DNA of 24,030 nt from a virus (lineage: Duplodnaviria > Caudoviricetes): IMG/VR virus record IMGVR_UViG_3300032227_001426, positions 1 through 24,030 of that record; one strand, given 5' to 3'. Shown one piece after another: positions 15,976-18,740 of this stretch (the first letter of the stretch is position 1; each line of letters starts with the position of its first letter). The translations under genes were made by a program, and so were the position numbers. The notes beneath the pieces were generated by a model that worked only from the letters and a program-made list of their open reading frames with translations, did not search any database and was not told the DNA's origin.

Positions 15976-16605
15976 ATGTTAGACAAAACCAAGGTTTCGA
16001 GGTCCGCGACTGCGCTTCTTGTGGCTTATGCCATATCGCTACCAATCGCCCAATCTCAGACTAATGCTAATGAAGAACAGAATAAATCCAGTGCCACCAA
16101 GCACTCCAAGACGGATAAGGTAACGCCTAAGCCTAAGCCTAAGCATAAGAAAACGCCTAAGCCTAAGCCAACGCCTACAGTCAAAAAGACTCATAAGCCG
16201 TCAAGTATCGGAACCAGTAATCCTGTAGTGATTGCTACCTCTAAGCCAAAACCGACACACGCTTCACGTTCTACCATCAGACAAACATCTGGTGTTTCTG
16301 TAAGCAAGAATCAGGCTTTTGCTAAGTACCATATGGCTACTCATTATGGTTGGGGCAGTGACCAGTACGTCTGCCTAGTGAATCTATGGACTAGAGAAAG
16401 TGGTTGGAGAGAAACTGCTCATAATCCATCGTCTGGTGCACACGGAATTCCGCAATCCTTGCCGGGAAGTAAGATGGCAAGTTCTGGTGCTGATTGGTAT
16501 TCAAACCCTGAAACACAAATCAAGTGGGGATTGAATTACATCAACAGTCGTTATGGAACTCCTTGCTCGGCAATGGGATTCTGGTACAACCATAACTGGT
16601 ATTAA
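15976..16605 (+). CDS. Secreted lytic transglycosylase (SLT/lysozyme-like) with Lys/Pro linker
   Basis: N-terminal signal-like segment; CLVNLWTRESGW (catalytic Glu), AHGIPQSLPGSKM, NPETQIKWGLNYINSRYGTPC. Confidence 0.88.
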   Translation: MLDKTKVSRSATALLVAYAISLPIAQSQTNANEEQNKSSATKHSKTDKVTPKPKPKHKKTPKPKPTPTVKKTHKPSSIGTSNPVVIATSKPKPTHASRSTIRQTSGVSVSKNQAFAKYHMATHYGWGSDQYVCLVNLWTRESGWRETAHNPSSGAHGIPQSLPGSKMASSGADWYSNPETQIKWGLNYINSRYGTPCSAMGFWYNHNWY

Positions 16606-16620: not shown

Positions 16621-16654
16621 AGCCCTCACCTTTTAGGTGGGGGCTTTGTGCTTT
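16621..16654 (+). terminator. Intrinsic terminator after the transglycosylase gene
   Basis: AGCCCTCACCT-ttt-AGGTGGGGGCT 11-bp stem followed by TTGTGCTTT. Confidence 0.8.
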
Positions 16655-16655
16655 G

Positions 16656-16756
16656 GTTATATTGTTGACCTACAAATGTAACAAATACCCCCCTTTTGTT
16701 ATATTGTTGCACTCCAATGCAACTTTTGGGTGCTATTTGTTGCATTGTAATGCAAT
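16656..16756. repeat. Three related dyad-containing direct repeats (putative protein-binding array)
   Basis: GTTATATTGTTG at 16656 and 16698; dyads TTGCA-N6-TGCAA at 16707-16722 and 16740-16755; degenerate copy at 16663-16683. Confidence 0.7.
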
Positions 16757-16785
16757 AAAGTGGAATAAGGGAGGCACTGCTCCAG

Positions 16786-16828
16786 AATAAGAAAGACCCC
16801 CTAGAAGAGAGAAACTAGGGGGACTTTC
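16786..16828 (-). terminator. Intrinsic terminator closing the putative ncRNA
   Basis: GAAAGTCCCCCTAG-tttctctctt-CTAGGGGGTCTTTC followed by TTATT. Confidence 0.75.
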
Positions 16829-17138
16829 GTTGTCACTCATTCGCAAGCGGGTGACTCCACTTGGGACAACTATGGAATGCAAAGGAGGTAAGAATTCCAT
16901 AGTCGTGCGAAGACTAAGAGGTGGAAGGTGAGACTTCACTCACACACAGGGGCAATCCTTGAATCAGTTTAGCCCTGTGACCACAAGTTGTCTGCCGACA
17001 TAAGTAAGACTTTGCAAAAGCCAGCCTCTCTAAGCAGTTGCCCTTGAGAGACCTTTTCCTTACCTTGTGTGCATTACTGGCTACGATTGCGACACCAGCA
17101 TTTCTGCCACTCCCCAAGATAACCGTCGCTATCTCGTT
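16788..17138 (-). ncRNA. Putative ~350-nt structured non-coding RNA of unrecognised family, with an anti-SD loop
   Basis: Bounded by a consensus promoter and a terminator; no credible ORF; about 10 helices, several with G-U pairs that form only on the minus strand. Confidence 0.7.
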
Positions 17139-17144
17139 AGGTAT

Positions 17145-17174
17145 AACCTAGCAGATAGGTTTGGGGGCTGTCAA
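17145..17174 (-). promoter_or_regulatory. Strong SigA-type promoter for the putative ncRNA
   Basis: Perfect TTGACA (17174-17169), 18 nt, extended -10 TGcTAGGTT (17153-17145); predicted +1 at A 17138 or 17137. Confidence 0.75.
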
Positions 17175-17181
17175 ATCGGGG

Positions 17182-17535
17182 TCAGTCTTTTTTGTTTTCC
17201 CCTGATTTTGCAAGGACAAATAGGACTTCAATCTCATCTGAAGAAAGGCTTTCCCTGTGCTCTAGGTAGAGTTCTGCGCTGTCTGGAGTGAGAGAGATGA
17301 GGTGGTCGTCCTCGGTGAACTCAATCTCTACCAAGCCCTTCTGCCATAGAGAGAAGGCAGCATCATCTGTCTTTTGTATGTGCTCGTCGTAGAGTTCAGG
17401 AAGAACTTCTTTGCACTTCTTTGTGACCGTGTAGATTGGCTCATCGTTGTGGTCAGTACCGATGTACTCCAATGCACCTTCAGAGATGAGGTAGTCGATG
17501 AACGCTTCAATGCCTTCTTCTTCTTCAGGTGTCAT
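17182..17535 (-). CDS. Acidic hypothetical protein (possible winged-helix)
   Basis: ATG with AGGA-like SD; 117 aa; coherent gene packing. Confidence 0.7.
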   Translation of the reverse strand: MTPEEEEGIEAFIDYLISEGALEYIGTDHNDEPIYTVTKKCKEVLPELYDEHIQKTDDAAFSLWQKGLVEIEFTEDDHLISLTPDSAELYLEHRESLSSDEIEVLFVLAKSGENKKD

Positions 17536-18663: not shown

Positions 18664-18736
18664 GTCTCCGTGGCGCAATGGATAGCGCAACAGGTTTCTA
18701 CCCTGTCGGTTGTAGGTTCGAGTCCTACCGGGGACG
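18664..18736 (+). tRNA. trnR: tRNA-Arg (anticodon UCU), CCA not encoded
   Basis: Acceptor GTCTCCG/CGGGGAC, D arm GCGC-AATGGATA-GCGC (A20), anticodon arm ACAGG-TTTCTAC-CCTGT, T arm GTAGG-TTCGAGT-CCTAC, discriminator G. Confidence 0.96.
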
Positions 18737-18740
18737 CAAA

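Follow-up and report, generated by a model that had tools for sequence, protein, structure and literature searches.

Whose messages, if any, would a phage silence with an RNA hairpin that displays a sequence resembling the 3' tail of 16S rRNA? The question is raised by a stretch of 24,030 nt (hereafter the window), a 24-kb virus record that carries a terminase, a primase, a ribonucleotide reductase and an actinobacterial DUF3039 gene, and in which a minus-strand hairpin holds an anti-Shine-Dalgarno (anti-SD) sequence in its loop. The nearest named phage is Actinomycetia phage DSL-LC01 (OQ999401.1; terminase 73.6%), after which come large Microbacterium and Gordonia phages. The host is likely to be found among the actinobacteria, a placement given at phylum level only because it is based on the DUF3039 gene and on the predicted actinobacterial host of DSL-LC01 (PMC10611076, as far as its available text goes). 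Elsewhere in the window, a tRNA-Arg(UCU) at 18664-18737 (+), common to G001 and G002, overlaps the 5' extension of a 426-aa ORF whose true start is probably 18630; a related 135-kb phage, G064, has a tmRNA according to ARAGORN (L167 13691-14036, +).

A conserved loop on a fast-changing stem

The 13-bp stem and 15-nt loop reported for 16906-16866 on the minus strand have the sequence described and fold accordingly (z -5.8). The preliminary description had called the loop an exact anti-SD. This holds for ACCUCCUUU (16889-16881), which equals 9 nt of the Bacillus subtilis 16S tail (worded as in the available part of PMC6107228), a reference that may not equal the host's own tail; it does not hold for the motif that is kept among homologs, UUACCUCCUU, which differs from the tail's UCACCUCCUU in having a U where the tail has a C. 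The ninth 16S-identical base (U) occurs in the window only, and is an A in the four homologs. Shuffling the 24-kb window gives an expectation of 0.27 such 9-mers; on its own the match is not remarkable, and conservation is what makes the motif real.

This conservation was read from five close copies (the window, L001, L002, L092 and L109), which represent four distinct versions of the hairpin, P2, and are all closely related. L001 and L002 were found independently of the loop, in 2 of 42 loci that have a relative of the adjacent transglycosylase; L092 and L109 came from a search of metagenomes with a 17-mer of the surrounding scaffold, which gave 38 matches, three of them true, one being L002 again and two new. 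Across the five copies the arms of P2 are 36-56% identical, while the loop (10/10 nt) and the scaffold (48/48 nt) are invariant; four-fold sites of two flanking genes are 41-79% identical. Three outer pairs of P2 have changed on both sides, as much as is reached by 4 of 500 shuffles of the four distinct rows. The check proposed at the outset, namely whether the loop is invariant while the stem covaries, thus comes out in favour of the hairpin, in a small sample of related copies. On these sequence comparisons, we regard the anti-SD loop of this uncatalogued phage ncRNA as selected, and the hairpin as real.

In the full predicted transcript, folding leaves the decamer UUACCUCCUU 88-100% unpaired. 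For L001, L092 and L109, folding predicts that the last CCU of the loop pairs with an AGG located upstream (unpaired probability 0.05-0.37), such that the 3' half of the loop would be partly paired in three of the five copies.

Could the signal belong to the other strand instead? The plus strand reads AGGAGG here and, as had been noted, lacks a usable start codon: since the first one, a GTG, lies 16-19 nt away in 5/5 copies, this is not an RBS. Between 17145 and 16780, the minus strand folds with z -4.6 and the plus strand with z -1.2; with no start at usable spacing and a weak fold, both a plus-strand RBS and a plus-strand RNA were rejected.

The predicted transcript and its modules

The hairpin sits in a predicted minus-strand phage ncRNA, at about 17138-16785 (Table 1). 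Stand-alone signals, i.e. a promoter and a terminator, are conserved in 5/5 copies around a transcript which is itself predicted. The promoter is identical in kind and place in all five copies, and its geometry is that of the promoters clustered in the early block of G001, a carrier of the RNA; a consensus promoter scan scored it below threshold. The U-tail of the terminator is longer in the four homologs than in the window. Between the promoter and the upstream 117-aa gene, all four close homologs have a gene of ~240 aa for a glycosyltransferase, which the window lacks (17174-17182). At 16650-16760, between two terminators, the window has an imperfect inverted repeat and repeated TATTGTTG words, which were not found at the corresponding place in L001 or L002.

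Table 1. Predicted features of the RNA locus and its neighbours, in window coordinates
Feature	Position	Strand	Details
Sigma-A-type promoter (predicted)	17145..17174	-	TTGACA (17174-17169), 18 nt, TAGGTT (17150-17145); start near 17138
RNA-A, optional ~220-nt 5' module	16921..17138	-	Hairpin 17136-17115, then four-arm cloverleaf-like fold
RNA-B core, predicted three-way junction P1/P2/P3 with L3-tail pseudoknot	16832..16916	-	Folding z -6.3, -4.7 and -4.3 in three copies
P1 5' strand UUCGC	16907..16911	-	Pairs with GCGAA 16844-16840; 5/5 Watson-Crick pairs, also in G063
P2 hairpin, fast-changing stem	16866..16906	-	Arms 5-9 of 14-16 nt identical, window versus homologs; 3 outer pairs change on both sides
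Anti-SD decamer UUACCUCCUU, within 15-nt loop 16893-16879	16882..16891	-	10/10 nt identical in 5/5 copies
P3 hairpin, loop L3 AGUCAC	16845..16862	-	Predicted; 16862-16857 with 16850-16845; G063 keeps 5/6 pairs with different letters
Pseudoknot strand GUGAC	16832..16836	-	Pairs with L3 (16855-16851); 5 Watson-Crick pairs, chance about 0.7%
Intrinsic terminator hairpin	16785..16828	-	10-nt C/U loop 16814-16805; folds in all copies
Lytic transglycosylase, convergent with the RNA	15976..16605	+	phrog_12661, E 6.5e-38; context only
117-aa gene, function unassigned	17182..17535	-	Synteny marker; flanks the RNA on its 5' side in every close copy and in G063

The 5' part of the transcript, RNA-A, is present in three of the five copies (window 17138-16921, L001 5259-5038 and L092 844-625, all on the minus strand) and cleanly missing from L002 and L109, where the promoter directly abuts the remainder, RNA-B. 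Its cloverleaf-like fold, which is predicted to be closed by 17114-17110 with 16927-16923, has covarying stems with fixed loops: two-sided changes affect 6 of its 68 pairs, a number matched by 2 of 500 shuffles. A tRNA or tmRNA identity was rejected, with ARAGORN calling 0/3 copies at the 80% threshold and behaving inconsistently at 70%, no Rfam call, and an internal frame, considered as a tmRNA tag, that is broken by a 2-nt indel. RNA-A may be a separate ncRNA that is co-transcribed with RNA-B.

Neither does the transcript appear to be coding or cis-acting. The small ORFs over it (16733-16939, 16914-17117 and 17067-17291) are broken in the homologs by indels and by the missing module, and Pfam gave no match for the two that were tested. 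A cis-acting leader or riboswitch was rejected as well: a terminator follows the RNA, and the next real minus-strand gene is ~1.8 kb off, beyond two opposite-strand genes.

Since in L002 and L109 the shared promoter is followed at once by the 3' ~130 nt and by nothing else of the transcript, we take RNA-B, a module of ~130 nt in which the P2 anti-SD hairpin is one of the arms, as the unit that carries the hairpin. Its three-way junction is predicted in 3/3 copies folded alone, and the pseudoknot partner of the P3 loop begins 3 nt after P1. P1, P3 and the pseudoknot give no covariation in the close copies because these helices never vary there. A loop-blind search for the topology returned 114 matches in 279 kb; the junction topology alone is common, and the search was discarded as a homolog finder for being too loose. 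HDV-like ribozymes, including theta, combine a short P3, a P1.1 of 1-2 bp, a P4, a catalytic C and a closing P2; by inspection, RNA-B lacks a strand beyond a P4 that could close P2, and with no Rfam match either this identity was rejected. Across the window, Rfam gave only a tRNA at gathering score, with 14 weak matches up to E 10 and no plausible family among them; for the relatives of the RNA, Rfam gave no match, and the RNA itself matched none of the 6C, RNAIII or cuckoo families.

Two further CU-rich tracts had been pointed out. Since the tract at 16931-16916 is mostly paired within RNA-A, whose helices vary compatibly, and is absent from L002 and L109, it does not amount to a second free anti-SD. 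The terminator loop does stay C/U-rich among the copies, as suggested, although its sequence is not invariant.

Relatives with other loops

Searches beyond the close copies were sparse in true matches. Loop-anchored scans of viral contigs gave 0 matches in a first round and 17 in a second, only two of them true; 11 of these 17 go back to a single SD that another phage group has on the opposite strand. Scaffold scans gave 19 matches and then a further six, with two true ones each time, and an RNA-A scan gave 81, of which 80 were scored and one was true. A first covariance-type search with model R1 matched 3 of 50 records, the third being G026 (E 0.0125), which lacks the fold, and 0 of 21 in a second set; model R2 matched 1 of 42. 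Blanks with R1 carry little weight, because at default filters this model missed G063. Among annotated phages, there was no DNA match to the RNA. Seven long metagenome contigs (L091, L096, L102, L104, L106, L107 and L115) share a conserved stretch of ~150 nt which contains the 17-mer of the scaffold search, and which did not score on model R1.

A syntenic RNA occurs in a relative, G063 (120 kb; primase 83%), at L155 8125-8335 (+), behind the same promoter type and facing a wall hydrolase of NlpC/P60 type. This RNA keeps UUCGC, AAG and CUUGCGAA while its loop changes to UUUGUUCUCCUUUC, and its pseudoknot is unlike that of the window in sequence. Its alignment to the RNA-B model covers the full length but scores just 11.4 bits, in a search designed post hoc; a pattern of the three words occurs in 3 of 50 records (G001, G063 and one that looks unrelated), and in none with the reversed control. 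The loop of its extra first hairpin has no complement of at least 12 nt elsewhere in the contig. Taken together, the alignment and the shared words make it probable that the G063 RNA is homologous to RNA-B.

DSL-LC01 (L187 4187-4330, +) and G054 (L163 11310-11170, -) have in common a 13-nt anti-SD hairpin tip on different stems, with the loop wording UCACCUCCGA; the tip contains UCACCUCC and is followed by a shared 13-mer, GUCCUAAG, with a second tract bearing UCUCCUU farther along. The unannotated DSL-LC01 element, which lies directly after a transglycosylase gene on that gene's own strand and shows no visible promoter, has the same topology as RNA-B; G054 is less clear. A pattern that joins the two occurs in 3 of 50 records. 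Because neither element scores on the RNA-B model, this pattern was written after both had been seen, and the topology is common, we treat them as candidate homologs only. Anti-SD loops of varied wording in probable relatives are nonetheless as would be expected of a pairing loop.

Likeness to known RNAs

The closest functional parallels come from bacterial sRNAs. Cuckoo RNAs of Alphaproteobacteria (RSs0680/alpha-r14) likewise keep an anti-SD-like loop motif while their stems vary freely, and global action versus action on chosen RBSs was left undecided there too (PMC4615179, in its available part). They are built of 2-4 simple adjacent hairpins, each with the loop CCUCCUCCC, whereas the window RNA has a three-way junction with a pseudoknot, from which a single loop, UUACCUCCUU, is displayed; and they are alphaproteobacterial, in a paper whose available text does not use the word 'phage', whereas our RNA belongs to an actinophage. 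With one anti-SD loop only, against the 2-4 with CCUCCUCCC that the definition in that text needs, it was rejected as a cuckoo RNA. The 6C sRNA of high-GC Gram-positive bacteria, hence of the same phylum as the likely host, pairs with mRNAs through pyrimidine-rich loops without Hfq, and is a precedent for chaperone-free loop pairing in Actinobacteria (PMC6486639, likewise in part); the pyrimidine-rich UCCC loops of Staphylococcus aureus RNAIII, as described in the same portion of PMC4615179, also pair without Hfq. Unlike 6C and RNAIII, the window RNA has a loop that resembles the 16S tail and not a run of Cs, is phage-encoded and has a different fold. With anti-RBS loop sRNAs it shares a conserved, single-stranded pyrimidine loop on a covarying stem, bearing in mind the partial pairing in three copies. 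We propose, by analogy, that it works like the loops of cuckoo RNAs, 6C and RNAIII, yet it would belong to none of these.

Among phages, the c4 antisense RNA of P1 and P7 likewise blocks translation near an RBS via loop-borne sequences; it serves one specific target, within a temperate immunity circuit, whereas the window RNA has a loop that matches a generic long SD (PMC12197685, as far as available). In the literature consulted, which included the available part of this phage sRNA review and left most subscription papers outside its scope, no phage anti-SD RNA was found.

The scaffold recalls something altogether different: the class 1 xrRNA of flaviviruses (PMC5760640, PMC7749634 and PMC8374639, each in part). 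The order of elements is common to both, with a P1 of five pairs, P2 and P3; in both, L3 pairs with the stretch just after P1 (the L3-S4 pseudoknot, predicted in our case), with the start of the RNA some 5 nt ahead of P1. RNA-B has a predicted three-way junction and a predicted pseudoknot, the latter of five pairs here, seven in G063 and six in DSL-LC01; the pairing of the 5' end with the junction and the base triple of xrRNAs, which also have a conserved C in the junction, are not evident in it. By inspection, RNA-B has no free strand between P3 and P1 unless P3 is shortened, and its bases are invariant, without covariation. One flavivirus xrRNA blocks bacterial RNase J1 in vitro, and the word 'phage' is absent from the available text of the xrRNA review among these three sources.

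Which messages would the loop pair with?

Summed over the readings that follow, the loop quite probably pairs with SDs in some form. With loop opening included, its predicted net binding to model full-length SDs is -13.0 to -15.4 kcal/mol, compared with -4.4 to -8.4 kcal/mol for the early-type AAAGGAGA of the phage. Of the several ways in which this could be put to use, we favour, at a probability of roughly 0.4, a trans-acting anti-RBS sRNA that is selective for long SDs and has mainly non-self targets, be they of the host or of a co-infecting phage. Host RNA polymerase would transcribe the RNA from its early-type promoter; the RNA would fold, as the covariation suggests, into a pseudoknotted three-way junction that holds P2 out with the loop at its tip; and the knot may stabilise the RNA, so that it accumulates. 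The loop is then predicted to form 10-12 bp with AAGGAGGU(A/G)A sites, as against 6-7 bp with the AAAGGAGA that is usual in the phage, and strongly SD-led mRNAs would putatively lose initiation while most phage mRNAs keep theirs. Selection would go by SD length and not by SD versus leaderless, and AAGGAGGUGA-led mRNAs would be expected to be repressed. Non-self targets remain plausible because the loop fits long canonical SDs, which are mostly lacking in the carrier's own genes. The idea that the RNA occludes SD-led mRNAs is in this sense partly supported, SD pairing being the likeliest use of the loop, though its global form, SD-led against leaderless, has been weakened.

Would the phage not be the first to suffer? 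The strongest rival, although we consider it unlikely, is that mRNAs of the phage itself are the main partners of the RNA, which would build up after entry and damp an SD-led early block, or hold back strongly SD-led capsid and tape-measure mRNAs, or delay a CHAP endolysin. It draws on the early block of G001 being SD-rich: in this genome, which is 62% complete and whose mechanical ORF calls include some false ones, 24 of 69 early ORFs are SD-led and four look leaderless, compared with 7 and 13 of 78 outside the block. Against this, the 5' extension of the loop fits 0 of 24 RGGAG-led starts of G001 (a filter that dropped one fitting early gene, which pairs at -13.9), and the UUAC extension of the window clade does no better than random on the clade's own SD-led starts, 175 of 250 alternatives being as good. 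A few other G001 genes do pair with the loop at -11 to -13, which, like the dropped gene, counts against the favoured reading.

The distant relative tells a different story. The G063 loop forms duplexes of up to 13 bp with early starts, and the 12 partners that rank highest are found in stretches holding the early block; of 32 starts in G063 its extension matches 6, which places it in the top 0.4% of 4096 alternatives. Yet it fits the starts of other phages about as well as those of G063, and by mean energy it is not outstanding (52 of 250 alternatives as good). The G063 loop therefore points to early-type phage starts, and that of the window clade to long canonical SDs, which are rare among its sampled genes. 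Insofar as the probable G063 homolog directs the family toward self targets, it points against selection of non-self messages. The lack of an SD purge in the carriers, described below, points the same way. So would the strong SDs of late genes, should the carriers have retained them: in 4/4 relatives with a major capsid gene, that gene has one (-10.2 to -11.9), and SDs of tape-measure-type genes in three relatives pair with the loop at -14 to -15, such that these mRNAs of the carriers would be hit. These names come from the DSL-LC01 annotation, and the carrier contigs are without the genes in question.

As for the endolysin, the CHAP start region ranks 1/31 in the window and 2/150 in G001 for pairing with the loop plus 3' arm, but 9/36 in G002; the match beats arm shuffles only in G001 (1/300, with 31/300 and 78/300 in the others), and falls to -3.2, -7.8 and +0.6 once the stem must open. 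Inconsistent as it is, failing in G002 and weak after stem opening, CHAP was rejected as a specific target. Many early promoters, in G001 12-41 kb (L145, L146) and in G063 (L153, L154), have the same arrangement behind them: a 5' hairpin whose stem varies while its purine loop (AAGGG/AGGGA type) is fixed, next an A-rich linker, and finally the SD AAAGGAGA; the whole looks like a conserved element of early leaders. Pairing of the scaffold's CUUGCGA with UCGCAAG of these early leaders was considered and dropped, the former strand being locked in P1/P3 and the leader forming its own variable-stem hairpin.

An improbable reading is that the loop is a decoy of the 16S 3' end, sequestering anti-SD-recognising nucleases or proteins of the host and so shielding ribosomes during infection. 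Actinobacterial toxins that cut the 16S anti-SD do exist, among them RelE1 (PMC12620021), MazF-mt11, which cuts at C^ACCU (PMC12274833), and MazF-mt1, which cuts at U^CCUU (bioRxiv 10.64898/2026.10.23.761202). The U^CCUU site is present in 5/5 loops, and the loop of DSL-LC01 and G054 keeps the true tail wording UCACCUCC. Yet all five close copies read UACCU, which is not the site of MazF-mt11; the toxins reportedly need 30S context, and the available text on MazF-mt1 states that UCCUU occurs in 796 genes while 16S alone is cut; the G063 loop drifts from the 16S tail toward mRNA spacers; and no helix-45-like context is seen, the real tail being a free 3' end and not a loop. A mimic with the exact tail, CACCU included, was rejected on the same UACCU, and the tail mimicry that the preliminary description had offered as its second option is made less likely because the loop has a U at the tail's C. 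This U accepts both A and G, which, we infer, suits pairing better than mimicry.

Slightly less probable still is that the scaffold is the working part, through protein binding, a nuclease block or catalysis, and that the loop is secondary or serves another contact. The 48 scaffold nucleotides are as invariant as the loop, and it is the scaffold's words that survive in G063 despite the change of loop. However, CUCC, the complement of GGAG, stands in every loop version including the distant ones, which argues against a scaffold-centred role because a neutral loop would drift like the arms.

Last and least probable of all comes the strong form of the original proposal, in which a global block on SD-led messages would release ribosomes for phage genes that are leaderless or coupled: the loop is conserved and predicted to be exposed, leaderless-looking ORFs do outnumber SD-led ones outside the G001 early block, none of the 31 starts in the window reaches -10 in pairing with the G001 loop, and leaderless mRNAs make up only about 14% of mycobacterial transcripts (PMC12274833, in its available part), but the early phage genes are SD-led with few leaderless-looking ones among them, the family's capsid genes have strong SDs, carriers show no purge of SDs (orthologous starts in G001 are no weaker than those of G063 in 47 pairs, p=0.53, nor was there weakening in four other comparisons), and such a block is unlikely to work because 6-7 bp with short SDs is too little.

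Implications

Known phage sRNAs mostly have a single target. If the preferred reading holds, a phage could, with an RNA sensitive to SD length and without any protein, change which messages are translated first, and the question posed for the cuckoo RNAs, global or selective, would become testable with a small natural series of scaffold plus loop, in which three loop wordings sit on what looks like one fold. We can push this further, as a long shot: a lytic actinophage RNA whose xrRNA-like knot resists host RNase J and which bears an exchangeable anti-RBS loop in P2 would amount to host takeover by RNA only. Were this true, strongly SD-led translation of the host or of a rival phage would be shut down while short-SD and leaderless phage mRNAs escape, and the knot would be the first of its exoribonuclease-resistant kind in a phage. 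Resistance of the fold to RNase J would extend xrRNA-type protection to bacteria, and would provide a stable carrier for antisense loops in Actinobacteria. And if the target should instead prove to be the phage's own genes, the RNA would reveal a timer in an abundant, uncultured phage group.
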